NCBI GenBank assembly: GCA_045545315.1
Contig: JAZQAR010000067.1
Location: 591 to 64,590, forward strand
From: Eubacteriales bacterium
GTDB lineage: Bacteria; Bacillota; Clostridia; Oscillospirales; QAKW01
Direction: 5' to 3'
Length of the DNA stretch: 64,000 nucleotides
Position numbers and translations under genes: made by a program. Positions within the stretch are counted from its first letter, which is position 1; the number at the start of each line of letters is the position of its first letter. The notes below the pieces were generated by a model, which was not told where the DNA came from, ran no database searches, and was given only the letters and a program-made list of their open reading frames with translations. Positions 2,167 through 58,907 of this stretch are shown piece after piece.

Positions 2167-5100
2167 TTAAGCCTGAGCCTTCAGCATTCTGACAACGTCA
2201 ACGATGTTGATCACGCCGTTGCCGGAATAATCTGCATTAGCTTCCACGATGCGATCGGGATAGTCTACCAAATGGCGCATTACTGCGGTGATATCTGCCA
2301 TTTCAAAGGCAGCGTTACCGGTAGCATCGCCGGCCAGCTTGGCAACAGAATTCATGGTGGCGGTTTCCTTATCAAAGGAGAACTCGTTCATCTCGGCATC
2401 CGTTACCAGTTCATTGTTCACGTAGAAGTAACCGGTCTCGGTTTTGATCTCGCCAAAGACCTTACCTTCGCTATCGGTATAGAAGGTCTTACCGTCCAAG
2501 GTAACCTTGATGGTGGCCTTGTCTTCGGTAGCGGCGATCACGGTCTTGCCATCTTTCACAGTCCAGACAGTGCCCTCTTCCCCATTCAACTTGGCGGCAG
2601 CCACACCGTTGCTGAAGGTCTCAGCCTTCACGGTGGCGGCATAGTTGGCATTGGGAATAACGTTCTTCTTATCGGCGATGATCATATTGTTCTCGTGAAC
2701 CTCTTCCTTGGCGTTACGAACAAGAATGTTAGTTTGAGGATCCTTCACGTCGGAATAGATCTTACCGTTGAAGTAGCAGTTCTTAACGGCAGTGGTACTG
2801 TTGTGAGCGTAAGCAGCCAGACCACCAACATACCGTTGACCGGTGATGGTACCGGAACAGCCCACGTTGATCATGGAACCGCCGTTACGGAAGTTTGCGG
2901 CAATACCGCCAACACCCTTGCCCATCTGCAGGCTGAGGTTGGTTACATTCACGCCGGACCAGATATTTTCCAGATTGGTAGCGCCATCGCAATAAGCAAC
3001 AATTGCAGCGGTCATATCGTAACCGATCATATTGCCGGTCACGTTCAGGTTCTTGATGGTCGCACCGTAGGTGGAGGCAAAGAGGCCAACGCCCAGGTAA
3101 TAGTGCCGGAAGTCGATATTGACGGTGTGGCCCTTGCCGTCGAAGGTACCGCAGAAGCGGTAAGCGTTATCGGGATCGGTAGCACCGGTATGATAGAAAC
3201 CATCTTCGGAATATACGCTGGTTCCATTAGAGGAGCTTCCGGTTCTACCTACGGGGAAGATGCTCATATCAGCCATATCCAGATCATTTTCCAGATATAC
3301 GGTCTTTCCAGCAAAGTTCACCCCGGAGCCAACCAATTCGCCAAAGGCCTTCCAGTCGTCCACGGTTACAATGCGATAAGCATCGTATGCGCGATACTTA
3401 TCAGCAGCGGCATACTGGGTAAGGGTGGGAACGCTGGGGTAGGTGCCGGTGTATTCGGCTGTGGTATCCACCACAGGCGCAGTAACAGCAGTAAGACCCA
3501 TACCGGCCAAAACGGCTTCGGCAATCTTCTGGTAGCCGGCATCGTTATACCAAACGCCTGCGGCGCAAGCATCGTCGGAGACGTAGCCGGCAACATCGGC
3601 CTTGGTTGCGGTATAAACGTCAATAAAGTTCACGCCCAGCTTGGTAGCCAGCTGGCTGTAAAGAGGAGCAGCAACCTGCAGAATAGCGGCAGCATTCTCG
3701 TTGGTGGCTGCAGGGGGATTTGCCAGATAGATTTCTGCTTCAGGGAAGGTAGCCTGGTATTTCTTCACCAGATAGGTGAACTGATCTTCGATCTTGTTGG
3801 CCAGGTTGGGAGCTGCAGCGTTCATGGTCTTAAAGTCGTTGGAGCCCAGCATAATAACCAGCTTATCGGGGTTCACCTTCAGGCTTTCGGCATAGGTGAG
3901 AGAATCGATATAGGAACTGCTTTGATCCTGTTGAATGGTGGCATTACCGGCTGCATAGTTCAGAACGGTGTATTCTTCGCCCAACAACTTAGTCAGAACG
4001 GCGGGGTAGCTCTTGCGATAAACGTCGCTGCTGCCCAGACCCAAGGTTAGGTCGTCACCCACCAGAGCGATCACAGGTTCTTTCTTATCGGAGGGCTCGG
4101 TAACTCTATAGGGAGTGGTGGGCATTTCTTCCATGGCTGCGCCGATAATGGGAGCCAACAGATCCAGACCCAGGGCGTTACAGTGAACGTTATCGTAGGT
4201 ACCGTCGTACAGAATAGTCTGGTCTCTGGTAACCTCTCCGGTCTTAGCAGGAGTGGTTTCGTCATAGAATTCCTCGGCCAGGTCTTCGTTATGATACAGA
4301 TCAATCAGGGGGATGCCCCATTTTTCACAAACAGCCTCAGCGGTAGGATAATAAAGTTCCTGGGCACCGTTATCGATATCGGTGAACCAGTTGGAATTTT
4401 TGATCTGATAGTTCCAGATATAAGCGATGGAGGCGGTGTCACCAAAGAGTTCAACGGCCTTGGCAATGGTGGCTTCCAAAGCACCGGAGAAGGTGGCTTG
4501 ATCAAAGTCTTCAAAATCAAATTCGTCGGGATCGATGGTGCCCTTGGGCAGCTTGGCAGAAGACTGGCTATAAGAAAGGTCGTTGGTTCCGCCGTGGATC
4601 ATCACGTAGTCGTAATCATTGTGGCGGGCGGTGTTCAACTGGTTCAGGATCTGATCCTTACCGCGAACGGTGGCGAACCAGTAACCGGAGATCCCGTAGT
4701 TATCCACCATCATATCGTACTTATCGGCGATACGGGCAGCCCAACCGCGGTTGTCAACGCCTTCCTTGTTCCAATCGTTGGCGGCTTCGGTAATGGAGTC
4801 ACCAATGAACAGAGCAGATTTACCGATCAGGGGATTATCGGCCTTGATACCGTTGGTGGCATAATAGCCATCGATTCCAACGTCGCCCCGCAGCACGAAG
4901 GCCTTGGTTCTGGCGTTGGTCATAAAGGTGGCGCGGATGTATTCAACCCCTGCGGGTACGGTGTAGGTATAAACGTCAGCACCGGTAGCCAGGTAATACT
5001 GATAATCCGTTACCAGGTTGTTCTTGATTTCAGCGCTTGTGGCGTTCTTCTTGGGGGAACCGGCATAATAACCGGTTTCATAATCGAAAGAGTCTTTCCA

Positions 5101-12204: not shown

Positions 12205-12239
12205 AAGGCGACCGCATTTTGCGGTCGCCTTTTTCTTTT
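12205..12239 (+). terminator. Rho-independent terminator of fba
   Basis: AAGGCGACCGC-ATTTT-GCGGTCGCCTT followed by TTTTCTTTT. Confidence 0.85.
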
Positions 12240-12293
12240 CATTTTTTCACACCTCCCGGCATAGATTGGTAAAAAGAGAGGATGTGTGAAAAA

Positions 12294-13241
12294 ATGAAAA
12301 GAAAATATTTGTTCCTTTACTTATTATGTCTGTTTTTGCCCTACGTTACGGTGCTGATCCTATGCCAAATTATGGACAAGGCACCCCAAACGCCGGAGCC
12401 CCGAGGCTACACCGTGACCCTTTACCGCACCCAAACCGAAAAAACAGAGGTCTTGGCCTTAAAGGATTATCTTTTTGGTGTTTTGGCGGGGGAAATGCCT
12501 GCCTCCTACCCGGAGGAAGCATTAAAAGCCCAGGTGGTGGCATCCTATTCTTATCTTTTGCATCGCAAAAACACCATAGCAAATCACCCTACCACCGATT
12601 TCGGTCACCCCGGGGATATTTGCGATAATCCGGATCATTGCAAGGCCTACGCCACCGCAGAAGAGTGCGAGGCCCGCTGGGGCAAGGAATGGCGAACATC
12701 CTTTGAGAATAAATTACGGCAAGTGGTAGAAGATTCTTTGGGCTATGCGGCACTTTATGAGGAAGAGCCCGCCAACACGGTCTTTCATGCCTTTTCCGGA
12801 GGGGTCACCGAGGATGCCGCCGACGTATGGGGTGCCGAAGTCCCCTACCTTAAATCCGTGGATTCCCATTGGGATCGGGAGGCCAAGGATTTTTCCACCA
12901 CGGTCAAGGTGCCCCTTGAAGAATTTAAATCAAAGCTGGAGATCACCGGTACGGAGGAAGGTGCCGTCACCCTGACCGCCGGAGGCTCAGTGGGGACGCT
13001 GGTCATCGGCGAAAAGACCTTCACCGGGCGGCAGCTGCGGGAGGCTTTTGGCCTGCGCAGTACCCGTTTTAATCTAAAAATTGAAAAAGAGCAGGCGGTC
13101 TTTTCGGTCAGCGGCTACGGACATCAGGTGGGAATGAGCCAATTCGGAGCTTCGGTTTTGGCGCAAAATGGCTTCACCTTTCAAGAGATTCTTTCCTATT
13201 ATTATAAAGGTGTGACGGTGGTACAAGATTATTATGTATAA
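12294..13241 (+). CDS. spoIID: Stage II sporulation protein D (SpoIID/LytB-domain lytic transglycosylase)
   Basis: N-terminal TM, then ...ALKAQVVASYSYLLHR...VFHAFSGGVTEDAADVWGAEVPYLKSVDS...GYGHQVGMSQFGA, which are SpoIID hallmarks. Start chosen at ATG 12294; the track ORF starts at 12282. Confidence 0.88.
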   Translation: MKRKYLFLYLLCLFLPYVTVLILCQIMDKAPQTPEPRGYTVTLYRTQTEKTEVLALKDYLFGVLAGEMPASYPEEALKAQVVASYSYLLHRKNTIANHPTTDFGHPGDICDNPDHCKAYATAEECEARWGKEWRTSFENKLRQVVEDSLGYAALYEEEPANTVFHAFSGGVTEDAADVWGAEVPYLKSVDSHWDREAKDFSTTVKVPLEEFKSKLEITGTEEGAVTLTAGGSVGTLVIGEKTFTGRQLREAFGLRSTRFNLKIEKEQAVFSVSGYGHQVGMSQFGASVLAQNGFTFQEILSYYYKGVTVVQDYYV

Positions 13242-13300: not shown

Positions 13301-13948
13301 ATGAAAGAGAAAATTTTGCATTTACTGAAAACCAAAGGCTACTATATTGTATTGGGGCTTTGTGTGCTGACGGTGGGCACGGTCAGTTTTCTTTCTTATA
13401 AGATCAATCAACAGGATCAGGCAGAAACACCTCTGACCCCCGGTCCCGCCTCCGATGTAGAAAAAGTAGAGGAAAAGGTACCGGATACCCGCCCGGAGGT
13501 GCAGGAGGAACAACCGGCCGCACCCTCTGAGGAGCAGGGTGCCGAGGCAGAATACGCCCCTCCCCTGACCGGCGAGGTGATCGCCCACTATTCCCCGGAT
13601 CATCCGGTTTATTCCTACACCCTGAAGGATTGGCGGGTGCATAACGGTATTGATATCGCTGCCCCCTCCGGCACCCAGGTGCTGAACGTTTGCGACGGGG
13701 TGGTGGAATCGGCAGAGACCCACGACCTGATGGGCAATACGGTGGTGATCCGCCACACCGACGGCAAGGTCTCGCGCTATTGCAGCTTAGGTGAGATGAC
13801 GGTGACCGCCGGGCAGATGGTCAAGAAGGGCGAGCCCATCGGCACCGTGGGGAACAGTATGCTGTTGGAGTGCGGTGAGGCCGATCACCTGCACTATGAA
13901 TTATGGGCAGATGATCAATTGGTGGATCCCACTTCGATTATGGAATAA
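13301..13948 (+). CDS. M23/LytM-domain peptidase with N-terminal membrane anchor (SpoIIQ-like position next to spoIID)
   Basis: TM YYIVLGLCVLTVGTVSFL, a Glu/Pro-rich linker, and a LytM domain (HNGIDIAAPSGTQV...GNTVVIRH...HLHYEL). Start chosen at ATG 13301 because of the AAAGGA SD; the track ORF starts at 13283. Confidence 0.8.
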   Translation: MKEKILHLLKTKGYYIVLGLCVLTVGTVSFLSYKINQQDQAETPLTPGPASDVEKVEEKVPDTRPEVQEEQPAAPSEEQGAEAEYAPPLTGEVIAHYSPDHPVYSYTLKDWRVHNGIDIAAPSGTQVLNVCDGVVESAETHDLMGNTVVIRHTDGKVSRYCSLGEMTVTAGQMVKKGEPIGTVGNSMLLECGEADHLHYELWADDQLVDPTSIME

Positions 13949-14251
13949 ATAACGGCGGTGCTTCATCCGCACCCCGTCGGCGGTAAGCTTGGTGGGTAAA
14001 GCTTCGGCGATCTCCGCCCATTCCAGCCCCCGAAAATAGCGCAGTTCAAAGATCAACCGCAGCTCGGGATCCGGGATCTGCTCCACGAATTTGGCCAGTT
14101 CCCACAAAACCTCTGCCAGCGCATCACAGCGCCGCAGCAGTTCCTTTTCCAGCGCCCGGGAACAGGCTGTCCGGCAGGGGGGCAGGCTCCGTTCCAATCG
14201 GCGGCATTCCTCCAGTTCCCGTTTGATCAATCTTGCGTCACACAGCTTCAT
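13901..14251 (-). CDS. Sigma-70 region-4-like phage transcription activator (RinA/DUF1492/Xpf-type), 116 aa
   Basis: The coiled N-terminus is followed by ...IPDPELRLIFELRYFRGLEWAEIAEALPTKLTADGVRMKHRRYL, a region-4-type HTH. ATG 14251 has a GGGAGGTG SD 7 nt upstream. The 3' end overlaps the convergent M23 gene by 48 nt. Confidence 0.7.
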   Translation of the reverse strand: MKLCDARLIKRELEECRRLERSLPPCRTACSRALEKELLRRCDALAEVLWELAKFVEQIPDPELRLIFELRYFRGLEWAEIAEALPTKLTADGVRMKHRRYLFHNRSGIHQLIICP

Positions 14252-14399
14252 GGGGCAGCACCTCCCGAAATTCGTTATCCACCCCGCAATGGGGGCAGCA
14301 GTAAAGGGTTTGTCCCCATCCGCCGGGTAGTCCGTAGGTCTCACGGTAGCGGACAGGCTCACGAAAGGTTCTTCGGCAGTTTTCACAGTAATACGTCAA
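14238..14399 (-). CDS. Small four-cysteine zinc-ribbon protein (53 aa)
   Basis: A TTG start at 14399 is preceded by AGGAGGTG 6 nt upstream. It has CxxC...CxxC (YYCENC...CCPHCG). It overlaps the XRE stop upstream and the sigma-like start downstream. Confidence 0.6.
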   Translation of the reverse strand: MTYYCENCRRTFREPVRYRETYGLPGGWGQTLYCCPHCGVDNEFREVLPHEAV

Positions 14400-14583
14400 G
14401 GGGGAACACCTCCTGAAAATCACATTGTAAGGCCCGGCATAGGCGCAGGGCAGTCTGAAAGCCGGGGTAACGGCCATCCTTTTCCAGCCGACAGACGGTG
14501 GAACGGGAGACCGAGGCGGCCTCTGCCAGCTCCTGCTGGGTCAGCCGACACCGAACCCGGTTATAATATAAGCGGTTATACAT
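14383..14583 (-). CDS. XRE-family helix-turn-helix transcriptional regulator (66 aa)
   Basis: RLTQQELAEAASVSRSTVCRLEKDGRYPGFQTALRLCRAL is a classic Cro/C1-type HTH. An AGGAGA SD lies 7 nt upstream of the ATG. Confidence 0.85.
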   Translation of the reverse strand: MYNRLYYNRVRCRLTQQELAEAASVSRSTVCRLEKDGRYPGFQTALRLCRALQCDFQEVFPLDVLL

Positions 14584-14613
14584 TGGTTCTTCTCCTGATA
14601 CTAAAATATTACA

Positions 14614-14625
14614 GAAATCGATTTC
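14614..14625. promoter_or_regulatory. Perfect 12-bp palindrome GAAATCGATTTC upstream of the XRE gene (candidate operator)
   Basis: Located 31 nt upstream of the XRE start, just upstream of a TAATAT -10-like hexamer on the minus strand. Confidence 0.35.
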
Positions 14626-14671
14626 GTTCTCTATTAAAAAGCAAAATTCGTCTTATTTCAAGGAAAACCGT

Positions 14672-14700
14672 TTGACATTTTTCGACATTGCCCCTAAAAT
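14672..14700 (+). promoter_or_regulatory. Sigma-70-type promoter of the Nudix gene
   Basis: TTGACA (14672-14677), 17 nt, TAAAAT (14695-14700). Confidence 0.6.
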
Positions 14701-14724
14701 AAAGGGTAAGAGGTGAGTTTTTCC

Positions 14725-15264
14725 ATGTCATTTGTCGAAAAAAAGATCCAAGAGGAATGTGTATACGAAGGGCCGATCTTTCAGGTCTATCATAATCTGG
14801 TGGAGTTGCCAAACGGAGTGGCCGCACCCCGGGATCGGATCGCCCATCGGGGCGGCGCCGGTATGGTGGCCCTGGACCGGGAGGATCATATCTATCTGGT
14901 GCGGCAATACCGCCACGGGGTGGAAAAGGAATTATTGGAGATCCCCGCCGGCAAATTGGAGGCCGGAGAAGATCCCGCCAAGACCGTGGTACGGGAACTG
15001 GAGGAGGAAGTGGGCTTTACCCCCAACAAGGTGACCTCCTTGGGCTATATGGAGCTTTCCCCCGCCTATTTGCAGGAGATCACCTATCTTTACCTGGGTC
15101 AAGAACTCATCCCCCACAAAGAGGAGCTGGATGAGGACGAGTTCCTGGAGGTGGTACGAATGCCCTTTGCCGAAGCCTTACAAAAGGTACTGGCGGGCGA
15201 GATCACCGACGGAAAGACTCAGGTGGCTATTATGAAGACCGCTTTATTATTAAATAAGTTATGA
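14725..15264 (+). CDS. nudF: Nudix hydrolase, ADP-ribose pyrophosphatase (NudF-like)
   Basis: Nudix box GKLEAGEDPAKTVVRELEEEVGF. The N-terminal region EECVYEGPIFQVYHNLVELPNG is typical of ADPR pyrophosphatases. The ATG at 14725 has an AAGAGGTG SD. Confidence 0.85.
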   Translation: MSFVEKKIQEECVYEGPIFQVYHNLVELPNGVAAPRDRIAHRGGAGMVALDREDHIYLVRQYRHGVEKELLEIPAGKLEAGEDPAKTVVRELEEEVGFTPNKVTSLGYMELSPAYLQEITYLYLGQELIPHKEELDEDEFLEVVRMPFAEALQKVLAGEITDGKTQVAIMKTALLLNKL

Positions 15265-15265
15265 G

Positions 15266-15299
15266 AGAACGGGTGCCAAAGCACCCGTTCTTTAATTTT
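15266..15299. terminator. Bidirectional terminator shared by nudF and the endolysin gene
   Basis: AGAACGGGTGC-CAAA-GCACCCGTTCT followed by TTAATTTT. The hairpin abuts the endolysin stop codon at 15292-15294. Confidence 0.8.
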
Positions 15300-15894
15300 G
15301 CAGTCGGTCCAAGATCACCGCAAGCTCGGCCCGGGTAACAGGGTCGTTAGGGCGGAAGTTTCCGTCCGGGTCCCCCACCATCAGCCCTTGCTCTGCTGCG
15401 GACTCCACGGCTTCCACCGCCCAAGCGGGGATCTGATTCTGATCCTCGAACATAGATTCATCCTCCTTCAATGTAAAATCCTTTGAATCATAGCGCCCCA
15501 CCCGATTGGGGATCCCCAACCATGTGGTGGGATCCAGCACCTCTTCCCCCTGCTGTAATTGATAATGCAGGTGGGTACCGGTCACGTTGCCGCTGGCGCC
15601 CATGGTACCGATGACGGTGGTGCGGGTGACCCGATCTCCGGCCTTGACCCGCACACTCCCCTGCACCAGATGGCAGAAGAGGTGACGGCGACCCTGGCTA
15701 TCGCCAATGGATACGTACTGTCCCCAGCCGGTGGCATCGTAGGCCACCACCCGCACCACACCGTCGCAGGTAGAATAAATATCCCGATTCTCTGCCACCA
15801 GGTCGATGCCCTTATGACCGGCCTTCCAAAGGGCGCCCTGCTGACCGTAGGTGGCGGTCACCGTAAAGGGGCCGCTGACAGGTAGATTGGTCAC
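15292..15894 (-). CDS. Phage endolysin: M23 peptidase domain plus C-terminal SLH cell-wall-binding domain
   Basis: HKGIDLVA...GQYVSIGD...GTHLHYQL is an M23/LytM Zn site. The C-terminus IPAWAVEAVESAAEQGLMVGDPDGNFRPNDPVTRAELAVILDRL is an SLH motif. The start overlaps the holin stop by 4 nt. Confidence 0.85.
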   Translation of the reverse strand: MTNLPVSGPFTVTATYGQQGALWKAGHKGIDLVAENRDIYSTCDGVVRVVAYDATGWGQYVSIGDSQGRRHLFCHLVQGSVRVKAGDRVTRTTVIGTMGASGNVTGTHLHYQLQQGEEVLDPTTWLGIPNRVGRYDSKDFTLKEDESMFEDQNQIPAWAVEAVESAAEQGLMVGDPDGNFRPNDPVTRAELAVILDRLQN

Positions 15895-16145
15895 TCCGCT
15901 GCCCCCGCTTTCAGGTTCTTTAAATACTGATCCGCCTTCAGAGCACTTTGGGTAAAGCTGTTATTCTTCCACCAGGCCCAAAGGGTGCTGATCACCGTGG
16001 CCAGGGCAGAAAGCCCCTGATAAAGTTCTTCATCGCTGAAGGGCAAGGGATTCCACCCCAGCAGGGTCATAATTTGATTGATCAGGCTGACCGCCAAAAA
16101 GGCGGTGCGGATCCAGGTTTCTTTTGAAATTTTCATAATCGACAT
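15891..16145 (-). CDS. Phage holin (SPP1-holin-like)
   Basis: 84 aa with two TM segments and the WWKNNSFT motif I associate with the SPP1 holin family. It lies immediately upstream of the endolysin. Confidence 0.8.
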   Translation of the reverse strand: MSIMKISKETWIRTAFLAVSLINQIMTLLGWNPLPFSDEELYQGLSALATVISTLWAWWKNNSFTQSALKADQYLKNLKAGAAE

Positions 16146-16151
16146 TCTCCT

Positions 16152-16517
16152 TTATATGATCTCCAGGAGCTTCAGTGCATTGATCCCCAGGCCGGAGCAG
16201 AGCAGGAGCAACAGCCCGATCCCCACGAAGCGGAGCAGGGTCTTACCGCCGGCGGTCTCGAAAAAGCCGAAGGGTGGGTGCTCCTCCATCCGATCCAATC
16301 GCTGTTCCTGCCGCTCCAGCAGGGCGGTCATCCGCTCCACCGCACCGGTAAGTTTCACGCAGGCCTTGGTCAGATCGTCCAGCTTTTGCCCCTGATCTTC
16401 GATCCGGCGCTCGGTGAGCTTTTGTACCCGCTCGATGCCCCCGCTCCGCATATTGCAATAATCCCGGGTAATGGGTTGCACCGTTATAAGCCCCGTGCCC
16501 GGTCTTCCAGCTCCCAT
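16152..16517 (-). CDS. XhlA-like lysis-associated membrane protein (coiled coil plus C-terminal TM)
   Basis: A heptad-like region (VQKLTERRIEDQGQKLDDLTKACVKLTGAVERMTALLERQEQRLDRME) is followed by a TM (LLRFVGIGLLLLLCSGLGI). It sits directly before the holin, as xhlA does in PBSX-type cassettes. The start is uncertain; ATG 16451 is an alternative. Confidence 0.6.
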   Translation of the reverse strand: MGAGRPGTGLITVQPITRDYCNMRSGGIERVQKLTERRIEDQGQKLDDLTKACVKLTGAVERMTALLERQEQRLDRMEEHPPFGFFETAGGKTLLRFVGIGLLLLLCSGLGINALKLLEII

Positions 16518-17254
16518 TGACGTTTTAACTGCTGGAGAGCCAGTTTATAGTAATAATCCTTGGCGGCGGCATCGGCGGCTGCGGCGGTTTTGAATTTTTG
16601 CAGATCCAAGGTATCCTCGGCATCCTGCAGTTCCAAAAAGCCATCGCCCATCTGTTGCCCCAATTCCCGATGCAATTCTGCCACCTGCTCCATGGCATCC
16701 TTTTGCACCGCCGCCCGGTCAGCATTGTTTTCTGCCAGGTCGTTCTGCTGATCCAGCAGGGCCCGGTACGCATTGGCCGCCGCCTGATTCAAGGCGGTGG
16801 CGGTGATCACGTCTGCCAGGCCGGTATTTTCCAGACCCCGGGTCAAAAGCCCGCTTTGTGCCAAACGCTGTTGGTTCCAGGCGGAGGAGCGGGCGGCCTG
16901 CTGATTCAGCTCCCCTTGCTGTTCCAGAAGGGCTTTTTGCTGTTCCAGGGCATCCAGTTGCTGCTCCGCTCCCTTTTGGATGGCGTTCAGCTCGCCCCGG
17001 GCGAATTGTTGCGCCAACTGCCGATAAGCATCGTAGCCCTCCGGGGCGCCGGCGCTTATCAAAAGCGTATAACGGGAGCCATCCTCCCCACCGGAATAGC
17101 CCGCACGGGCACGGATCTGCTCGGCTTGGGAATGGGCCGCCCTTTGGGCGGCGGTATCTCCGGCTGCCACCGCGGTCTCATAGGCCAGGGTGGCTTTTTT
17201 TAATTCCTCCTGCTCTGCTTGAGAGAGCAGGAATCGGTCGATATTACTGAGCAT
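16484..17254 (-). CDS. Phage structural protein, Ala/Gln-rich coiled coil (256 aa), function unknown
   Basis: An intact ORF in the structural gene string with low-complexity alpha-helical composition. I recognise no motif. Confidence 0.6.
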   Translation of the reverse strand: MLSNIDRFLLSQAEQEELKKATLAYETAVAAGDTAAQRAAHSQAEQIRARAGYSGGEDGSRYTLLISAGAPEGYDAYRQLAQQFARGELNAIQKGAEQQLDALEQQKALLEQQGELNQQAARSSAWNQQRLAQSGLLTRGLENTGLADVITATALNQAAANAYRALLDQQNDLAENNADRAAVQKDAMEQVAELHRELGQQMGDGFLELQDAEDTLDLQKFKTAAAADAAAKDYYYKLALQQLKRQWELEDRARGL

Positions 17255-17275
17255 TGTTCTTCCTTTCTATTTTAT

Positions 17276-19261
17276 TCATCGGCGTCTTCCTTTGCGATAG
17301 ATCAGCCGCAATCCCCACAGCTTATAATGCGGTACGTCCGGGAACTGCAACCGCACCGCCAGGTGATTGCACCGTCCAAAACGGGTGGCGATAGGGCACC
17401 ATTGTCCCTTGACCCCCTTCCAAAGCCGGAAGGTGCGAGAGGCATATTCCGATCCGTTCCGCAAAAGAGTAAAGGTGCCCTCGGTGTTATCCGGGGCGGT
17501 CAGCAACAGCTCCAACCGATGAAAGATCATGGCAAGACCGCTGTTTTCCTCCAGGGCAGGCGTTTGCCAATAGGCCTCAAACTCCTCCCCTGCTCCTTCG
17601 CTTATACGATATATGGAACCGTTGTAGCATCCCAAATATAAGGCATCCTCGGTGGCCACCACCGCCTGGAAGGGAAGGGGCAGTTCCCACCGCATAAAGC
17701 GGTAGCCCCCTTCCCCATCGGATCGGCCGTCGGTCACCAGCACCGTTTCCTTTAAAAACAGAAGATACAGCCCCTTCCAATTAACGGCGCAAATATCCGA
17801 AAACGTAGCGTTGTTAAAATAGGGCTCCACCGTGCGGCTGCGCAGCACCGTTTCGTTCAGGTTGATCAGCTCGTCGGAGACGGATTTGACGGTATAAATA
17901 CCGCTTTGAGCCATAAAGCAGGGCTCGTTCCCTGCCCAGCCCACCGTATGGCTGTTGATACAACCGTCCACGGAGGCTCCCGCCACCGAGGGGTACGCAT
18001 CCACTTGATAGGGCTCCCCGGCCAGGTTGGAGCCCACCTCCACCAATCGGTGGGAACGGAAAAAGACGTTGGAATCCCGGGGGTCGTTTTTCAATACCGC
18101 CAGCCGTCCGTCCTTTAAGGGGCAATAGCCGGTGATGGGGGTATCCCGATTGCCCAGCTGTTCCCAGGCGGTCTCGTAAAAGCATAAAAGATCCCCCGGT
18201 GCGCTGAAATGGTCGATGCCGGGTGTTTTCTCGCTACCGCCCATAAACAGCACGCTGTTGCCTCCATCGGGGCCGTAAAATCCTATGGCGGTAGCGCCCA
18301 CCAAGGCTTCAGGGTAATCCTTTTGCACCCCGTAGGTCACGGTCAGGTTATCCATTCCGTCAGCGGCAAGGTAAGCAGAGCCGCTCCCCAGGCCGACCAC
18401 CCGATCCTCTTCATCCAAATTCAGCGCTATACCCGCGCTCAGGTTCAGGTCGGCGGTCAGCCGGGTGCCGCTCGGTTCACTTTGAAAGCGATAAGACGGC
18501 ACACAGGCCACCTGGCGCCAAGCACCGCTATGATCCCGCACACGCAGTTCCAAAGGGATCCTTTGATTGATGGCGTTCAGAGGGCAGTTCAGCATCAGGC
18601 TGTTGACGGCGGTATTGTCCAGGTAAAAGCTTTCGGTGCGGAACTGGCTCAAAAGATTATCACCCCGGGGATCCACGTCCCCGCTCCCTTCCGCCGGAAG
18701 CTTGGCCACGGTGGTGTGGGGGACGGTGGCATAGTAATAATCACTTTGCCCGGGGGCATTTCCCCAGTTGACGTCGGTACAGGAGCGAACGGTCTCTCCG
18801 TCGTAGAACAGATAATTCTGTCCATCGCAGAGGAATAGAAACTCCTCTTCGAAGATGCGCCGTTCCCATCCGTTGGCGGTGCCGTCCCCACAATGCCGTT
18901 CTTCTACCCGCTGGTGGCGGAGAACCCCATTGGAGTAGGCACAATTCATTTTGTCGTAGAGAACGGTGCCGGAGGTGGGGGCGTACCGAAAATAAGAGAT
19001 CAGTAGCTCCCCGGCGTGTACGATCAGTTGATTGCCGTAGCAAAAGAGGCCGTAAATCGGTTGACCCACCTCCAAAAACGGGGCACAACCGGGGCGGCGC
19101 CGAAGCGCCTCCCCGTCCCAGATCAGATTCAGGGTATCGGCCGCCCGGCTCCAGGGGCGGTTCACCCCGCACCCGCCGGTATCCAGCCCCATAAACTCCC
19201 GTTCTGTCCGGGTCACCACCGTGCCGCCGCCACCCGTTAATTTATGGATGGGGTAGCTCAT
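17276..19261 (-). CDS. Large phage structural protein (661 aa), probable tail/adsorption component, family not recognised
   Basis: The largest ORF after the capsid genes. It is rich in Gly/Asp/Tyr beta-type segments (…DGRLAVLKND…, …ALYLGCYNGSIYRI…). Its start overlaps the upstream ORF stop by 4 nt. Confidence 0.65.
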   Translation of the reverse strand: MSYPIHKLTGGGGTVVTRTEREFMGLDTGGCGVNRPWSRAADTLNLIWDGEALRRRPGCAPFLEVGQPIYGLFCYGNQLIVHAGELLISYFRYAPTSGTVLYDKMNCAYSNGVLRHQRVEERHCGDGTANGWERRIFEEEFLFLCDGQNYLFYDGETVRSCTDVNWGNAPGQSDYYYATVPHTTVAKLPAEGSGDVDPRGDNLLSQFRTESFYLDNTAVNSLMLNCPLNAINQRIPLELRVRDHSGAWRQVACVPSYRFQSEPSGTRLTADLNLSAGIALNLDEEDRVVGLGSGSAYLAADGMDNLTVTYGVQKDYPEALVGATAIGFYGPDGGNSVLFMGGSEKTPGIDHFSAPGDLLCFYETAWEQLGNRDTPITGYCPLKDGRLAVLKNDPRDSNVFFRSHRLVEVGSNLAGEPYQVDAYPSVAGASVDGCINSHTVGWAGNEPCFMAQSGIYTVKSVSDELINLNETVLRSRTVEPYFNNATFSDICAVNWKGLYLLFLKETVLVTDGRSDGEGGYRFMRWELPLPFQAVVATEDALYLGCYNGSIYRISEGAGEEFEAYWQTPALEENSGLAMIFHRLELLLTAPDNTEGTFTLLRNGSEYASRTFRLWKGVKGQWCPIATRFGRCNHLAVRLQFPDVPHYKLWGLRLIYRKGRRR

Positions 19262-19773
19262 AGCACACCCCCGCCTTCCACGCTGGCGGCGGGGCGATAG
19301 CCCACCGCCGCCGAAAGCTTGGTATTATACTGCTCCATCAGCCGGGTGTAAAGATTGGGATCCTCCCCCATCACGTACAGGGCGGCGCAATAAAAGGGCA
19401 TTGCCGTCAGCAGATCTGCCGGGTAAGGCAGTTCCCGCTCCGGGTCGGTGCGGTGCACCGCCGGGGGCTTGCGGTAATAGATCAGGGTATACTCGCCATC
19501 CTCGGCCAGTACCCTGCCCTCCTCTACCACCAAGGGCATCCGCTTGCCCTGGCGCATCAGTGCCCGAGGCACCAGCACCTGCTCCGGCAGGAGGGCAGAG
19601 CCTTCCTCCACCCTAATCCGACACCGAGCCTGTAGCGGAAAGATCCGGGCAATCTCACAAAGGCCGCTATCCAGGCCATCCAACAGTCGGGCACGGCGAT
19701 CCTCCAACTCGTATTCCACCTCCACGTTATCCAGTAACGCCGAAGCACGGTCAATGATCGTTTGAATATTCAT
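19258..19773 (-). CDS. Phage head-completion / head-tail adaptor candidate (171 aa)
   Basis: Its position is two genes after the major capsid protein. The call rests on size and location only; I recognise no specific motif. Confidence 0.5.
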   Translation of the reverse strand: MNIQTIIDRASALLDNVEVEYELEDRRARLLDGLDSGLCEIARIFPLQARCRIRVEEGSALLPEQVLVPRALMRQGKRMPLVVEEGRVLAEDGEYTLIYYRKPPAVHRTDPERELPYPADLLTAMPFYCAALYVMGEDPNLYTRLMEQYNTKLSAAVGYRPAASVEGGGVL

Positions 19774-19777
19774 TGAC

Positions 19778-20107
19778 TTATTTCAGCTCAATGACAGCAA
19801 TGGAGGAATTATAAGGAGAATAGATCTCGATATAATTCCCCTCTTTCCCGGCCTTCAGATGAGGACCTACCTCCAGGCGGATCACACTGTGAGTGCCTTC
19901 GGGAATTTCGAAGGAAGCTTCCTTACCGCCAAAAACAGTGTTCCCTGCAGAGACGGTCAGGGTACCGCTGGGGACTGCATCCACGATCAGCAGGATCTCA
20001 CCGGAGCCATGCTGTACGGGGATTTTTCCGCCGTTTTCACAATCAACGTAAGCGGGCATTTTTTCAAGGGTGTTCAAGCCCAATACCATAGAGTTTACTT
20101 CAGTCAT
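19778..20107 (-). CDS. Small phage structural protein (109 aa), possibly capsid decoration
   Basis: An all-beta-looking ORF immediately downstream of the capsid gene. The call is by position only. Confidence 0.5.
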   Translation of the reverse strand: MTEVNSMVLGLNTLEKMPAYVDCENGGKIPVQHGSGEILLIVDAVPSGTLTVSAGNTVFGGKEASFEIPEGTHSVIRLEVGPHLKAGKEGNYIEIYSPYNSSIAVIELK

Positions 20108-20126
20108 TCAGATCTTCTCCTTTCCA

Positions 20127-20942
20127 TTACTTATGGGCGCGGATCACGGCCAGTTCCTTAGGACGAACCAGCTTAGCGCCGTAAACGTTCAGACCCTTGA
20201 TGGCATCGGAAAAATATTTTTCCGGGCGGTAGGCCTCGGTCTCGTCGATGGCGCTGGCAAAGGCAATGGCTTTGTTGGTACGCACCATCATATAATCGTC
20301 GGTACCGTCGTTGTACAGATTGTTGCTCAGGATCACTCTGGCGCAATCGTACATCCCTACAACGCCCTTGGCGATCAGCTCGTCGTTATTGGTCTTGATC
20401 TCAGTCAGGGCATCACGGAACAGCTGATAAAAGAAGGGAGAGACGGTGATGGACACCTGGTCGGAAACGTCCACGTCGTTCTCACGCAGGGTGAGCAGAG
20501 CGGCATCCACCAAAGCCTTGGCCTCGGCGGGGGTGGTTACCTGGGTAGATTCGCTGCAGTTAGCGCTGTCCGCCGCGATGGATGCCACGTAATGGTCACG
20601 GGCGGCAGCCATCTTACGGCTGGCCTCCTCCATCACCACGGGCATCAGCTCGGGAACCGCCTGCAGGCGATCCAGGTCGTCCACCATAAAGTTGAAGGCC
20701 TTGGCCTGATCCACGTCCATAAAGACGCTGGTGCCGGCCAGGGTCTGGGGGGTATCCATCCCCTCCTTGCTGTTATAATCGAAGATCTCGGGGGCAACGG
20801 CGCCCAAGATCTTCACCCGGCTGCCCAGCCGGGCTTCGCCTTCGAACTGGCGGTTACAATCCTCCACCAGTTTACACTTCTTTTCCAGCTCGGTCTGAAT
20901 AAAGTGGCTCCAGATGGTGGGTTTGAAATTTGCAAAAGACAT
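20127..20942 (-). CDS. Phage major capsid protein (271 aa)
   Basis: It follows the scaffold gene in the terminase-portal-scaffold-capsid order. Its size and the N-terminus MSFANFKPTIWS... are typical of small major capsid proteins. The fold was not verified. Confidence 0.7.
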   Translation of the reverse strand: MSFANFKPTIWSHFIQTELEKKCKLVEDCNRQFEGEARLGSRVKILGAVAPEIFDYNSKEGMDTPQTLAGTSVFMDVDQAKAFNFMVDDLDRLQAVPELMPVVMEEASRKMAAARDHYVASIAADSANCSESTQVTTPAEAKALVDAALLTLRENDVDVSDQVSITVSPFFYQLFRDALTEIKTNNDELIAKGVVGMYDCARVILSNNLYNDGTDDYMMVRTNKAIAFASAIDETEAYRPEKYFSDAIKGLNVYGAKLVRPKELAVIRAHK

Positions 20943-20946
20943 ATTT

Positions 20947-21513
20947 TTAACTCCTTAATTTAGACAGGGAGGCCAGGGCCTTACGGAATACGTTGGGATC
21001 CTTCAGATCCGCCTCCGTCAGGCGATCCAGCTCCCGGGAGGAATAATACAGCGCGGCTCCTCCTGCCGATTTTGCGCTTGCCATATCTGCGGGAACGGGA
21101 TCAGCCCTGCGGTTCGCCGCCAGCTGGGCTTCATAAGCCACCACCGGATCCACCATACCGCCCGCCATCAATCGGCAATAGAGCTCCCCCACTTCTTTGG
21201 GGCTTTTGGCGGTCAATTCGGGATAAGCGGCCCGCACCTGATCCAGATCCCGCTGAAAGCGGGTCTCCTCCAATAAAGACATGGCCTCCTTTACCAGAGG
21301 ATGCTCCAGAACCTCCCTGCGGAGCTGTTGCTCCCGGGCGTTTTCACGCAGTTCGTTGGCCCGGGCCTCAAGGGCTCTGCGGCGGGCGGCCTGGATGCTT
21401 CGTTCTTCCGGCGGCATCGCGCCGGGTTCGGGGTTGGTTTGGGTGGAGTCCGGCTGATTTTCCGGAGTTTCAGCGGTCTCCACCGGGGTTTCTGTGATTT
21501 CGTTCATGAACAA
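20947..21513 (-). CDS. Phage scaffolding protein (188 aa)
   Basis: An acidic/Pro-rich N-terminus followed by highly charged helical segments (RRRALEARANELRENAREQQLRREV), located between the portal and capsid genes. Confidence 0.65.
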   Translation of the reverse strand: MFMNEITETPVETAETPENQPDSTQTNPEPGAMPPEERSIQAARRRALEARANELRENAREQQLRREVLEHPLVKEAMSLLEETRFQRDLDQVRAAYPELTAKSPKEVGELYCRLMAGGMVDPVVAYEAQLAANRRADPVPADMASAKSAGGAALYYSSRELDRLTEADLKDPNVFRKALASLSKLRS

Positions 21514-21528
21514 ATCTCCTTTCCATTT

Positions 21529-23058
21529 TTACGCTGTCGGTGCGAAGTTTTCGGGATTTTTGCGCTCTTCCCCTGCGATCTCAACGGTTTGACGGGCGGC
21601 TAAGATCTGCCGCAGTTTTTCTTTGGGCACGTTGGAATCCGCATCCAACGCCTCCACGAATTCGCTGAAGCCCAGGTATCCCGCATCCAGCAAATTATGC
21701 AAAGATTGCTCCTGCGCAAATTTGGAATAGGGATTGGCGGGGGAAAGATCCACCCGCACCCGGGGGCTCAGCACCTGTAATAATTTGGCGGGGATGGTGC
21801 CCTCCTTCAGGCTTAGTCCCGCCGGATGATAGGCCCGCAACAGATCGAACCAGATCAGGGCGGTATCCTCGATAAAGCGTGTCAGTTGTGATACGGCGAA
21901 GTTCAGGTTCAGGGTTGCGGTATCCCGGGCAGCCACGATGGCGGCGCCGCTGGCATTTTCCGGGTTGATCTGACCGGTGACCGCATCGCCGGCACCGCAA
22001 AGCTCCCGGGTGGTGTTGATCAGGTTGGTCATAAAGTTATAGGCCATCCCGTTGATGCTTGCGGGCTGAACGTAAGAGATCAGCTCGCCGATATGCACGT
22101 TGGGATCATCCACCGCAATGGAGGCGCCGATCTTTTCGATATCCTCCACGTTCTGGATGCGGGGTGCATTATACACCAGCTTGGGATAAGCAAACCGCTT
22201 GATGGCCACGTCCATCCGTGCCAGGTTCTTGTTAATGGCGATCTGGTTGGGGATCAGGCTTTCCACCACACCCCTGCCCCGGCAATTTTCCTTGCGACGG
22301 CTCCAGATGAAGGGAGCAACGGGATATCGGTGCAGACCCTCCAACACCACCTCCGGCCGATAGATACAGCCCTGGGTGGCCTGCAGGTAACAAACGTTCC
22401 CGTTTCGCTTATAAAACTTCAGGATGGAGGTGCATTTTTGCAGTTCCTCCAGGTTACTTTCCTGAGGCCCCGCCTCGGTATCCGGGCGGATATTGCTGAC
22501 CTCGTCCTCCGGTAGGCCGTTAGCCAAAGCCTCGGCCCGGACGTCCTTGACCCGGCGGCGCTGGACGATCAGCAGGTAGGGCTGATTTTCCAGTTCCTGC
22601 TCCGCTTCATCGGCAAAGATCAGATCCTTGCCGGAGAGCACCTCGCTATGCACCCGCCCCTCCTTCATATAAAAATAAAGGTAGCCGGCGCCGTTGACAC
22701 AGCCATCCTCCACGATCTCCCAGCATTTTTGATCCATCTGATTCTGTTCCCACAGCAAACGGGCATTCTGATTCAAAAGCCGGGCGGCCTCGTTGCCCAG
22801 CCCCTGCAGGGCGGGATGATCGGAAAGATCAAAGCTATAGTGGACCGAAAGGTTATTTTGTGCCACTACCGCCGTTTTATATTTGACGATGGGCTCCAGG
22901 ATATTGAACTGGGGCAGGCGCTCCCCCTCGGTGGGCAGATACCGCCATTGATCCCCTTCGTAAAAGGCCGTGCATTCTTCCACACGGTCGTAAAAGCCGT
23001 TGCGGGTCAGTTGGGAGGCTCCCTCCCGATACTCCCGCCAGATCTGTTCACCGGTCAT
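21529..23058 (-). CDS. Phage portal protein (509 aa)
   Basis: It lies immediately downstream of the large terminase. The size and N-terminus (...CTAFYEGDQWRYLP...PIVKYKTAVVAQNNL) are typical of SPP1-Gp6-type portals. Confidence 0.8.
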   Translation of the reverse strand: MTGEQIWREYREGASQLTRNGFYDRVEECTAFYEGDQWRYLPTEGERLPQFNILEPIVKYKTAVVAQNNLSVHYSFDLSDHPALQGLGNEAARLLNQNARLLWEQNQMDQKCWEIVEDGCVNGAGYLYFYMKEGRVHSEVLSGKDLIFADEAEQELENQPYLLIVQRRRVKDVRAEALANGLPEDEVSNIRPDTEAGPQESNLEELQKCTSILKFYKRNGNVCYLQATQGCIYRPEVVLEGLHRYPVAPFIWSRRKENCRGRGVVESLIPNQIAINKNLARMDVAIKRFAYPKLVYNAPRIQNVEDIEKIGASIAVDDPNVHIGELISYVQPASINGMAYNFMTNLINTTRELCGAGDAVTGQINPENASGAAIVAARDTATLNLNFAVSQLTRFIEDTALIWFDLLRAYHPAGLSLKEGTIPAKLLQVLSPRVRVDLSPANPYSKFAQEQSLHNLLDAGYLGFSEFVEALDADSNVPKEKLRQILAARQTVEIAGEERKNPENFAPTA

Positions 23059-23230
23059 ATTGCTCCTTTCTGCCGGAATAGGCTTCGATCCGCTTTAACA
23101 GGGAATCCTCCTCTTCCGGGCGGGCGCCCATCAGTCTGCCCCGGCGGGAAACGGAAAGACCGTCGGCCAGACCCAGGCGGTAAAGAGCGGCGCCGATGGC
23201 AACGCCGGTCAAGATCCAAATGATGATCAT
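23048..23230 (-). CDS. Small membrane protein (60 aa) between terminase and portal
   Basis: MIIIWILTGVAIGAALYRLGL is a TM segment, followed by a charged tail. The ATG overlaps the terminase stop (ATGA) and the 3' end overlaps the portal start by 11 nt. Confidence 0.45.
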   Translation of the reverse strand: MIIIWILTGVAIGAALYRLGLADGLSVSRRGRLMGARPEEEDSLLKRIEAYSGRKEQYDR

Positions 23231-24561
23231 ATGATCGCTTCCTTTCTGTAGCCCCCCAACAGATCGGGGGCGAATTTTTTCGGTACCGGGGCATTGCCCG
23301 GCACCCCCATCACCAGGTACCTGAGAGCATCCGGTGCGTGGGTCAGCTCGTGGGGGTCGGTCTTGCAATCTCCGGGATGGGCGGGGTCCCATTGCAAGGC
23401 CGGTAAACAGCGGATCAGGTTCAGGCAGGTGGAAAAGATCCGCAGACGGGGGCCCCGCCCGGGGCGGGGGCGGAGCCACTCGTTCAGGGTTGCCCAGCCG
23501 CCACTTCGGTTGGGGCTGACCCTGGTCAGCAGGATCCCGTTTTCCCGGAACAGATCCGCAATGGCACGGCCGCTATCCTTTTGCCGGCTCCACAGATCCG
23601 GCGGTGCATAGTGGGGGCAATCGCCCCCAAAGGCCTCTTTAATCCGGGTGGCAGCCTCCGAGACGATCAGCCCCGGTTCGTAAAGCTCCCGCCAGACGTA
23701 AAAATCGCCCTGCTCGTCCTCGGCCGCAAAGAGCCCCGCCAGCATATCCAGGCCGTAGTCCAAGGCGAAATACTGCCGCCAATGATCGGGGATCTCAAAG
23801 GGCTCTACCACGTGGATACTACGATCCCATTGGGTAAAGAACCGCCCCTCCGTCAGATCCCAATCACCCTCCAGCAAAGCCCGGCGTTCCCGCTCCGGCA
23901 GCCGTTTTAATCGGGAGATATATTGGGGATCCCCCTGCATCAAAAAACGGTTATCCTGTACCCGGGCGGGAATAAAACGGCGGGTGCCCAGGTCGTCACG
24001 GATTGCGGTATCCGCCGGGGCGGGATCCACAAAGCGGCTTTTGACCCATTGGTGCCCTACCCCACCGGGGTTGGTGGTGCTTTTCATCTGCCGGGGAAAG
24101 GGCTTTGCACCCCGCAGGCGGGATTGCAGATACAGGTACATAGACTCGGTAAAATGGGTCAGCTCGTCAAAGCGGATCACGTCGTATTCCGCCGATTGGT
24201 AGCGGTAAACGTCCCGCTCGCTGTCGCAATAGCCAAAGTCCAGCACCGAGCCGTTTTCAAAGTACCCCGTATGGCGGGAGGAGAGGTAGCGGTACACCCC
24301 CCGGGGATAAAGTTCCTCCGCAGAGCGCACCAGGGAGTTTTCCAGTTCCGGTAGCGTGCGACGCAACAGCAGTTGGCGGGAACCGGGGTATTTTAAGGCA
24401 TAATAAAAGGCATCCACCAGCTGCCCGTAGCTTTTGCCGCCCCCGGCTGCACCGCCGAAGAGGATCTCGTCCTCGGTGGCGGTGATGAACCGATGCTGCA
24501 GGGAAGTAATGGTAAAAATACCGTCAGGACCCATCTTCTGCCCCCACGATGCGTATTTCAA
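23227..24561 (-). CDS. Phage terminase large subunit
   Basis: Walker A FGGAAGGGKS and Walker B-like VIRFDELTHF, plus a C-terminal nuclease-like region (ALDYGLDM...). An alternative start is ATG 24534. Confidence 0.9.
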   Translation of the reverse strand: MKYASWGQKMGPDGIFTITSLQHRFITATEDEILFGGAAGGGKSYGQLVDAFYYALKYPGSRQLLLRRTLPELENSLVRSAEELYPRGVYRYLSSRHTGYFENGSVLDFGYCDSERDVYRYQSAEYDVIRFDELTHFTESMYLYLQSRLRGAKPFPRQMKSTTNPGGVGHQWVKSRFVDPAPADTAIRDDLGTRRFIPARVQDNRFLMQGDPQYISRLKRLPERERRALLEGDWDLTEGRFFTQWDRSIHVVEPFEIPDHWRQYFALDYGLDMLAGLFAAEDEQGDFYVWRELYEPGLIVSEAATRIKEAFGGDCPHYAPPDLWSRQKDSGRAIADLFRENGILLTRVSPNRSGGWATLNEWLRPRPGRGPRLRIFSTCLNLIRCLPALQWDPAHPGDCKTDPHELTHAPDALRYLVMGVPGNAPVPKKFAPDLLGGYRKEAII

Positions 24562-24778
24562 AACGGCGGCCGGAGTCCTCCTCGGGATCCCCCCGGGAAA
24601 GCTCCTTCATCAGTTTAATGGCGTTCATCCCGCCCTCCGCCGCCCGCTTGGCCAGGCTCAAAGCCGCCAGTTCGCTAACGGTTTTGTCCTGTTGCTGCTC
24701 CAGGGCCTCCTCCAATTGGGGCATGGTCATGGCTGCGGCGCGGGCAAAATCCTCGGCCAGCAATTCCAGCAAATTCAT
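24524..24778 (-). CDS. Small acidic protein at the terminase-small-subunit position (84 aa)
   Basis: ATG 24778 has a GGGAGGTGG SD. It is the first gene of the packaging string and overlaps the terminase start. I recognise no HTH. Confidence 0.5.
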   Translation of the reverse strand: MNLLELLAEDFARAAAMTMPQLEEALEQQQDKTVSELAALSLAKRAAEGGMNAIKLMKELSRGDPEEDSGRRFEIRIVGAEDGS

Positions 24779-24845
24779 GGTTACTTCCACCTCCCGCAGA
24801 CATTATAGCGGTAAAAAAACGAACGCCGGCGAACAGGATTTATGG

Positions 24846-24874
24846 TTGCAATTATCGGCGGGTTTTGTTATAAT
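24846..24874 (+). promoter_or_regulatory. Sigma-70-type promoter of dagK
   Basis: TTGCAA (24846-24851), 17 nt, TATAAT (24869-24874). Confidence 0.6.
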
Positions 24875-58798: not shown

Positions 58799-58865
58799 TC
58801 CTTGCTCCCAAATCCTTTTTATTACTTATTATAATATTATAATATAATTTCACACAATGAGCAAG

Positions 58866-58901: not shown

Positions 58902-58907
58902 GATCCA

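Follow-up and report, generated by a model that had tools for sequence, protein, structure and literature searches.

A podovirus-like element resembling a gene transfer agent (GTA) has been described in Faecalibacterium prausnitzii. This element, FpGTA, is encoded in a 10.5-kb operon (operon I) that runs from a small terminase (TerS) without a DNA-binding domain through the large terminase (TerL), portal, one gene, capsid, two genes, nozzle, and one further gene to an abundant particle protein annotated as “TolA” (Nat Commun 2026;17:2046, PMC12946183). Its particles measure ~40 nm and contain 8.4 to 8.9 kb of random host DNA, while fibers, receptor-binding protein, holin, and lysin are encoded in a second operon 125 kb away (PMC12946183). 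The authors leave open a role other than gene transfer for their own element, as well as delivery of its packaged DNA to recipients, and report GTA-like packaging of 4 to 10 kb in several uncultured gut Clostridia without an assigned gene cluster (PMC12946183). GTA-like packaging of host DNA was recently reported to be the most common form of capsid-borne bacterial DNA in three human fecal viromes, and a 2026 preprint lists sequence-only GTA candidates in mouse-gut Coprocola; only for Faecalibacterium has a cluster been identified and backed by particle proteomics. Here, we describe a compact phage-derived operon within 64,000 nucleotides (the window) of an Eubacteriales bacterium (Clostridia; Oscillospirales; QAKW01; assembly GCA_045545315.1, contig JAZQAR010000067.1, positions 591 to 64,590) and compare it with these systems.

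The element is a 13-gene operon of 9.5 kb on the minus strand (15292-24790). In our reading it probably derives from a short-tailed (podovirus-type) phage, has been domesticated and passed on vertically, and acts as a GTA-like particle system. The two parts of this reading differ in strength: we are highly confident that the locus is domesticated, and we somewhat favor a GTA-like function, with random host DNA being packaged and transferred, which is suggested by analogy and by the constraint on the packaging genes. The initial annotation had proposed a maintained, non-replicating, domesticated particle locus, and this proposal is borne out by conserved synteny, purifying selection, codivergence with the host, and host-like codon usage.

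Seventeen open reading frames (ORFs), 16 of them on the minus strand, lie between an M23 peptidase gene (ending at 13948) and dagK (24915) in the ORF map. They are tightly packed, with 4-nt overlaps at 15891-15894, 19258-19261, and 23227-23230, and the coordinates, strands, and overlaps first assigned to them agree with this map. The initial annotation had treated 13901-24845 as one element. We instead set the 13-gene operon apart from a trio of XRE, zinc-ribbon, and sigma-like genes (13901-14583), since a NUDIX gene belonging to the host stands between them; the trio also survives in a relative that lacks the operon. Flanking the locus are spoIID and a SpoIIQ-like M23 gene at one end, with dagK, an SLH-amidase gene, and dut at the other. 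The absence of integrase and replication genes that had been reported for the locus is confirmed: no such families are found among the locus ORFs (Pfam, PHROG, and NCBIfam), and Pfam searches of ~30 of the larger ORFs elsewhere in the window give no recombinase, replication gene, or further phage gene. Neither att-like flanking repeats nor tRNA genes were found, and Rfam gives no match in the window.

The particles had been suggested to be possibly tail-less, an option that is contradicted by two ORFs that represent parts of a short tail. The 661-aa (amino acid) ORF (17276-19261) folds as a podovirus tail nozzle in its predicted structure, an AlphaFold2 (AF2) model built from 46 homologs (pLDDT, 88.9; pTM, 0.87). 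In a Foldseek search with this model, the best 20 PDB matches are all podovirus tail or portal-tail chains (E values, 2.7e-15 to 4e-9), including the T7 nozzle gp12 (7boy), the phiM1 nozzle, P22 gp10, and chains of Sf6, SU10, and cyanophage A4. Encoded between capsid and nozzle, the 171-aa protein (19258-19773) is a probable head-to-tail adaptor, as judged from its sequence: it matches Pfam SU10_adaptor at 2.9e-5, under the gathering score, the same faint match recurs in its homologs, and a PDB profile search places the SU10 adaptor 7z47_A second-best, at an E value of only 0.82. Sheath, tube, tape measure, and baseplate families are absent from all locus ORFs (Pfam and PHROG).

A scan of GTDB species representatives yielded related loci (numbered with the prefix L) in 28 species, all uncultured metagenome-assembled genomes (MAGs) designated Eubacteriales or Clostridia, some of them labeled as coming from goat or roe-deer rectum; at the cluster level, the nozzle has 46 relatives. 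Exact-sequence look-ups of genomic context for the 661-aa protein of the window and for its 100% match gave no result. All 29 non-redundant loci share one chromosomal site and one gene order, namely degV, fba, spoIID, M23, the sigma-like, zinc-ribbon, and XRE trio, NUDIX, the operon from lysin to first gene, dagK/SLH-amidase, and dut. The operon is complete in 16 of them, the others being cut by contig ends. All genes are full-length in each contig long enough to judge, across ~30 species. Frameshifted or decayed homologs, which the initial annotation had named as evidence against a maintained locus, were not seen, and no near-identical module was found within a larger prophage. The comparison of synteny and dN/dS across relatives that it had proposed supports domestication, given 29 colinear loci and low dN/dS values.

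The core of the element is conserved as much as the host flanks or more. Identities across loci reach 79 to 98% for the capsid (dN/dS, 0.017 to 0.076), 69 to 91% for the portal, and 70 to 89% for TerL (dN/dS, 0.05 to 0.09), compared to 56 to 80% for SpoIID, 55 to 76% for DagK, 64 to 91% for DegV, and 63 to 88% for NUDIX. The fastest-evolving genes of the element are the nozzle (37 to 60%) and a 109-aa protein (25 to 59%). Against the three closest loci (L010 to L012), dN/dS in the window is 0.017 to 0.03 for the capsid, 0.06 to 0.09 for the portal, 0.09 for TerL, and ~0.2 for the nozzle, with dS near saturation and similar to that of the flanks. In an unsaturated pair of loci (L025 and L028), element genes show dN/dS of 0.02 to 0.15 (dS, 0.11 to 0.70) and flanking genes 0.04 to 0.17 (dS, 0.20 to 0.63). 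Pairwise distances in the element core follow those in the host flanks (Mantel r of 0.64, reached by 0 of 2000 permutations). Codon usage of the operon is host-like, with a correlation of relative synonymous codon usage between operon and host genes of 0.96. The contrast in GC content noted in the initial annotation is real (57.9% in the operon versus 53.7% in the window) but only modest, and GC content at third codon positions lies within the host range (0.687 versus 0.659 ± 0.078). Features general to GTAs are a set of phage genes for structure, packaging, and lysis that lacks genes for replication or integration, vertical inheritance, and purifying selection, and all of them are observed here.

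The host clade can be delimited with the NUDIX gene (14713-15264, plus strand; Pfam NUDIX, 4.3e-18), which lies outside the element: orthologs of at least 60% identity form 57 clusters, followed by a sharp drop to 54% or less. Most long NUDIX contigs coincide with contigs bearing the nozzle or capsid. Three cases that do not were inspected; L125 and L126/L127 contain the operon, while L128/L129 does not, such that NUDIX occurs in relatives both with and without it. More distant NUDIX orthologs (41 to 48% identity) are found in unrelated contexts and were the sole yield of a metagenome scan for empty sites.

Family scans agree with most of the product calls made in the initial annotation, namely those for TerL, portal, capsid, holin, M23-SLH endolysin, and the XRE helix-turn-helix (HTH) protein. 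The calls of a scaffold and an XhlA-like protein fit by position and architecture, respectively, but neither protein has a Pfam or NCBIfam match, and for the sigma-region-4-like call a family match is present but weak. TerL (23227-24561) comprises ATPase and nuclease and matches Pfam Terminase_3 (4.5e-12), Terminase_6N (2.8e-11), and phrog_979 (1.2e-49). Across 24 loci, its Walker A motif (GGAAGGGKS), Walker B, the STTNP coupling motif, and the nuclease motifs show either no change or conservative substitutions. Against the PBSX-family model TIGR01547 it scores 26.9 bits, compared to a cutoff of 105. The portal (21529-23058) is P22-like (Pfam P22_portal, 2.4e-13; phrog_156, 7.7e-21), and the major capsid protein (20127-20942) belongs to an HK97-fold family (phrog_267, 5.7e-37; PDB 8e16, “Major capsid protein, gp6,” 1.8e-32), with no NCBIfam model matching at an E value of ≤0.01. 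Between portal and capsid, a 188-aa protein (20947-21513; 62 to 88% identity) is assigned to the scaffold by its position and has no PHROG match either.

The first gene of the operon (24524-24778) encodes an acidic protein of 84 aa at the position of a small terminase. It is present in all related loci (44 to 75% identity) and most likely starts at ATG 24778, behind the ribosome-binding site (RBS) GGGAGGTG at 24795-24788, rather than at GTG 24790. The protein has no match in Pfam, PHROG, NCBIfam, or PDB profiles and is alignable with the first gene (76 to 79 aa) of the type-B loci described below. We also considered whether it is a truncated small terminase; hhalign against the 168- to 172-aa Terminase_2 TerS of related phage contigs gave a probability of 0.1% and the PDB profile search was empty, which leaves this candidate unsupported. 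A 60-aa protein with a membrane helix lies between terminase and portal (23048-23230), without a family match and at the same position in every complete locus (50 to 87% identity). The 109-aa protein between capsid and adaptor (19778-20107; dN/dS, 0.29 to 0.42) is absent or undetected in several loci and in the type-B locus L044, and is possibly surface-exposed. Following the nozzle is a 256-aa all-helical protein rich in Ala, Gln, and Glu (16484-17254; 38 to 80% identity across loci), which is in part similar to the gene that follows the nozzle in type-B loci and in phage L039. It occupies the position of the FpGTA particle protein annotated as “TolA” and of the P22 needle. AF2 modeling from the sequence by itself gave a poor, all-helix structure (pLDDT, 62), and a PDB profile search gave chance matches only. 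An additional 125-aa ORF is seen between nozzle and helical protein in loci L002 to L007.

Lysis genes end the operon. A 121-aa coiled-coil protein with a C-terminal membrane helix (16152-16517; 40 to 80% identity) lies upstream of the holin and is XhlA-like in architecture only; its PHROG matches are weak and to families of unknown function. The holin (15891-16145) matches Pfam Holin_SPP1 (3e-29) and phrog_263 (1.3e-29). XhlB of PBSX is a member of the same Holin_SPP1 family. The endolysin (15292-15894) combines an M23 endopeptidase (Pfam Peptidase_M23, 1.5e-20) with an SLH wall-binding domain (3.8e-15). Over 47 nt, the endolysin gene (15527-15573) resembles the region encoding the C terminus of the host SpoIIQ-like M23 protein (13886-13932), at 70%, the two regions being oppositely oriented. 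In loci without the host gene, protein searches with the host M23 sequence recover the endolysin M23 domain at ~28 to 35% identity.

Alignment of the regions upstream of the operon in 20 related loci uncovers a conserved promoter (24802-24834, minus strand). It consists of two GTTCG boxes (24834-24830 and 24824-24820), 10 bp apart, followed by a T-run and a TATAAT −10 element at 24807-24802. The GT(T/G)CG pair straddles the −35 position, and boxes, T-run, and TATAAT are kept in all 20 loci despite near-saturated synonymous sites. No TTGACA-like −35 hexamer is found at 17 bp from the −10 element, which suggests that the promoter probably requires an activator or an alternative sigma factor. In the rest of the window, GTTCG-N5-GTKCG occurs seven times, against 6.7 expected, and since this is chance level no regulon can be claimed. 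The dagK promoter (24846-24874) of the initial annotation was recovered by the promoter scan; counts from the consensus promoter and terminator scan of the window are not above shuffled expectation.

The regulator trio next to the host M23 gene lies on the minus strand as well. The XRE-family HTH regulator (14383-14583; Pfam HTH_3, 6.8e-11) is preceded by a conserved promoter of its own, and divergent promoters lie in the region between NUDIX and XRE, which is conserved as well. Between XRE promoter and RBS we observe a perfect 12-bp palindrome, GAAATCGATTTC (14614-14625), unique in the window where 0.02 are expected. In loci L018, L024, L025, and L028, palindromes of the GTCGAC type are found instead, in the leaders of XRE and of the operon alike. 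The zinc-ribbon ORF (14238-14477), recognized by its CxxC...CxxC pattern, has no Pfam or PHROG match in the window, and its true start is probably near 14400; an ORF of 51 to 54 aa occupies this position in relatives. The sigma-70 region-4-like HTH protein (13901-14251; ~116 aa from M46) matches phrog_36 (7.8e-8), with Pfam Sigma70_r4_2 (1e-3) and NCBIfam sigma models (1e-3 to 7e-3) all under cutoff. In GCA_017473545.1 (L128, 6809-8162; L129, 1952-3305), spoIID, M23, the trio, and NUDIX are kept and are directly followed by unrelated genes (CN_hydrolase and PALP), with no operon at this site. The trio is thus not strictly tied to the operon, and we infer, on this account with caution, that it may control it.

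The ~30 larger ORFs that were scanned in the rest of the window encode hrcA, mnmA, a MoxR ATPase, ABC transporters, thrC/thrB, the dcw cluster (with an intact mraY; 45.2 to 46.2 kb), htrA, and a two-component system, or have no Pfam match. A 1750-aa protein (2167-7419) contains three GDSL/SGNH lipase-type stretches (Pfam), and a 737-aa ORF without Pfam match (58857-61070) adjoins a 911-aa protein with C-terminal SLH (61238-63973). Between fba and spoIID lies a 26-nt inverted repeat (12231-12256 and 12280-12305; 96% complementary, 23-nt loop). Its second arm covers the spoIID start region, and its first arm, read on the minus strand, contains an RBS and ATG identical to those of an internal start of spoIID. 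This interval varies among relatives (L125, 5578-6201; L002, 18009-18777), one containing Phage_rep_org_N and another Barstar and CopG-like genes.

Outside the host clade, the capsid family is large, with 848 matches. Among them we distinguish compact loci of ~10 kb, here called type B (L038, 4471-14237; L042, 424-10043; L043; L044, 4250-14421; and the IMG/VR entry L130, 9620 bp). Like the window locus, these comprise a small first gene, TerL, portal, holin, M23-SLH lysin, scaffold, a 271-aa capsid protein, adaptor, nozzle, and a post-nozzle gene, without integrase and between housekeeping flanks at a conserved chromosomal site of their own. Unlike in the window, holin and lysin are located mid-operon, between portal and scaffold, the holin belongs to Phage_holin_4_1, and the site differs, with an amino-acid ABC transporter and IMPDH on one side and thiD and ECF-riboflavin genes on the other. 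Type B is 69 to 71% identical to the window in the capsid, 59% in TerL, and 38% in the portal. The phage-like L039 to L041 show 61, 59, and 38%, respectively. These larger contigs encode a 172-aa Terminase_2 TerS, a RelBE toxin-antitoxin pair located within the structural module, and a protein that spans at least 2551 aa and includes a PBECR3 domain. Their capsid protein is common, being recorded in 36 index blocks of the sequence collection. Since the distance from the window to type B is not clearly smaller than that to these phage-like contigs, separate domestications of type B and the window locus are possible. More distant relatives are L131, a 23-kb viral contig (capsid, 51%), and MT836592.1 (L001; 9588 bp), an unannotated virome scaffold from human feces in Mexico (capsid, 36%; TerL, 49%). 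The latter has the gene order of the window, with a 168-aa TerS, TerL, portal, scaffold, capsid, two small genes, and a 642-aa nozzle-like ORF. The window-type (type-A) element itself was not found in IMG/VR.

From these parts a working model can be proposed. The dedicated promoter, which probably needs an activator or an alternative sigma factor, would switch the operon on in a subpopulation of cells, where small capsids would be built with portal, adaptor, and nozzle and filled with DNA by the terminase. Holin and M23-SLH endolysin would then lyse the producer and release the particles. The cargo would most likely be fragments of the host chromosome, because the locus lacks means of integration, replication, or preferential mobility. 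By analogy with described GTAs, particle production, random packaging, and delivery of DNA to recipients may all take place.

Several points weigh against the reading as a domesticated GTA-like system. The Mantel correlation between element-core and host-flank distances is not a fully independent test, given the physical linkage of the flanking genes with the element. Most comparisons involve near-saturated synonymous sites, and the related genomes are all MAGs. The absence of the operon at its site in L128/L129 indicates that it is widespread but dispensable. No receptor-binding or fiber gene is recognizable in the locus, and the identity of the 84-aa first gene as a small terminase could not be established from its sequence. 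The locus is known from its genes, and random packaging and transfer are argued by analogy. Finally, a capsid with room for at least ~10 kb could take up the entire operon, and a capacity near operon length would blur the distinction between GTAs and self-transferring elements.

The main rival explanation, which we regard as unlikely, is that the operon is domesticated in the manner of PBSX for a role other than gene transfer, either making particles that package DNA but act as a killing agent or serving programmed lysis or release of extracellular DNA, possibly tied to stationary phase or sporulation. The evidence for domestication applies equally to this case, and it is an option that the authors of FpGTA also leave open (PMC12946183). 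Features in common with PBSX fit this explanation, namely a gene of the XRE repressor type, a sigma-like gene, and a cassette of small transmembrane protein, holin, and lysin at the operon end, as does the proximity of spoIID and the SpoIIQ-like M23 gene. This link to sporulation is one of adjacency only, however, and the operon promoter is, in our reading, unlike published consensus sequences for Bacillus sporulation sigma factors. PBSX kills by means of a contractile tail, whereas the locus ORFs include no gene for sheath, tube, or baseplate. Moreover, the intact and strongly constrained terminase motifs imply that DNA packaging itself is under selection.

Three other explanations are far less probable than the PBSX-like one. 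It is very unlikely that the operon is a decaying, functionless remnant left by deletion from a podovirus prophage of 30 to 40 kb, although integrase, replication, lysogeny, and fiber genes are lacking, one relative has no operon, and related capsid and terminase genes reside in larger phage-like contigs (L039 to L041 and L131) and in the virome scaffold MT836592.1: full-length genes in ~30 species and the low dN/dS of the unsaturated pair argue against decay, and even the nearest phage-like relatives show only 61% identity in the capsid, 59% in TerL, and 38% in the portal. About equally improbable is a helper-dependent mobile element such as a capsid-forming satellite related to phage-inducible chromosomal islands (cf-PICI), which the initial annotation had put forward. 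Small size, head genes, the lack of a long tail, and the listing of a related type-B element in IMG/VR as a 9.6-kb “virus” fit this idea. It is contradicted by scans that found no integrase, excisionase, primase, replication gene, or att site, by the fixed chromosomal site, host-tracking divergence, and host-like codon usage, and by the presence of TerL, adaptor, nozzle, and lysis genes in the locus itself, such that packaging, tail, and lysis require no helper. The least probable is a fully active minimal temperate podovirus that integrates and replicates through host or unlinked functions. The gene set is complete for virion and cell lysis and 9.5 kb could fit a small capsid, but the element occupies the same site in ~30 species and codiverges with them, scans of the 64-kb window gave no recombinase or att repeats, and type A is missing from IMG/VR. 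Nor do we observe the organization of an intact prophage, as a host gene lies between the operon and the XRE/sigma-like trio, which is also kept where the operon is missing, and the distribution is that of a fixed site rather than a patchy one.

The domesticated GTA-like reading can be placed against three described systems. PBSX of Bacillus subtilis is likewise a domesticated, non-replicating particle locus with an XRE-type repressor gene and a sigma-like factor nearby, and its operon also ends in a small transmembrane protein, holin, and lysin. It differs in its size (~28 kb, compared to 9.5 kb) and in having a contractile tail, tape measure, and baseplate where the window has adaptor and nozzle only, as well as in that the regulators of the window persist without the operon in one relative. 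With the RcGTA-type GTAs (viriforms) of alphaproteobacteria the window locus shares vertical inheritance, purifying selection, codivergence with the host, lack of self-replication, and a host-controlled cluster of head, tail, and terminase genes (PMC9662315). RcGTA has a siphovirus-type long tail and unlinked lysis, fiber, and regulator genes (PMC9662315), and the likeness was judged at the general level of TerL, portal, and HK97 fold.

The strongest resemblance in gene order is to FpGTA. Its genes, read from RCH50853 to RCH50844, follow the window order of small first gene, TerL, portal, one gene, capsid, two small genes, nozzle (P22 gp10-like), and helical protein. Both are compact podovirus-type operons in chromosomes of gut Clostridia, lack replication and integration genes, and are present across the species examined. 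By family naming, the capsids differ: that of FpGTA is named “N4-gp56 family” by NCBI, whereas the window capsid has no NCBIfam match and is related to gp6 of 8e16, a comparison made by gene names only; the best 120 protein-search matches are relatives closer than Faecalibacterium. Similarly, the FpGTA gene between portal and capsid is named “Prp protease” (a Prp-type cysteine protease), while no family match identifies such a protease in its 188-aa counterpart. FpGTA has its lysis genes in a second operon, and the window has them at the end of the same operon, with no fiber gene seen. The host clades differ as well, the window clade being uncultured and possessing spoIID and SLH proteins. FpGTA is supported by evidence from particles, proteomics, and packaged DNA, whereas what we know of the window locus comes from its genes alone.

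The initial annotation had regarded the combination of features seen here as undescribed for Clostridia, a claim overtaken by the publication of FpGTA in 2026 (PMC12946183) and by further gut Clostridia candidates in a 2026 preprint. The window locus belongs to these recently recognized podovirus-type GTA-like elements and is not categorically new, yet it may represent an independent lineage among them. We tentatively suggest, as a possibility short of an even chance, a second and independently domesticated podovirus-derived GTA lineage, defined by a self-contained 9.5-kb operon that is vertically inherited in an uncultured clade of Clostridia with SLH proteins and sporulation genes and is driven by a factor-dependent promoter. 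The window locus and type B provide concrete candidate clusters in other uncultured gut Clostridia, with full parts lists, a conserved promoter, and ~30 orthologous copies. Should they be active, podovirus-type GTAs would no longer be confined to one genus, and the small 9.5-kb operon would lend itself to heterologous reconstitution. In relation to FpGTA, the window locus could be the missing cluster behind some of the 4- to 10-kb GTA-like packaging in uncultured gut Clostridia.

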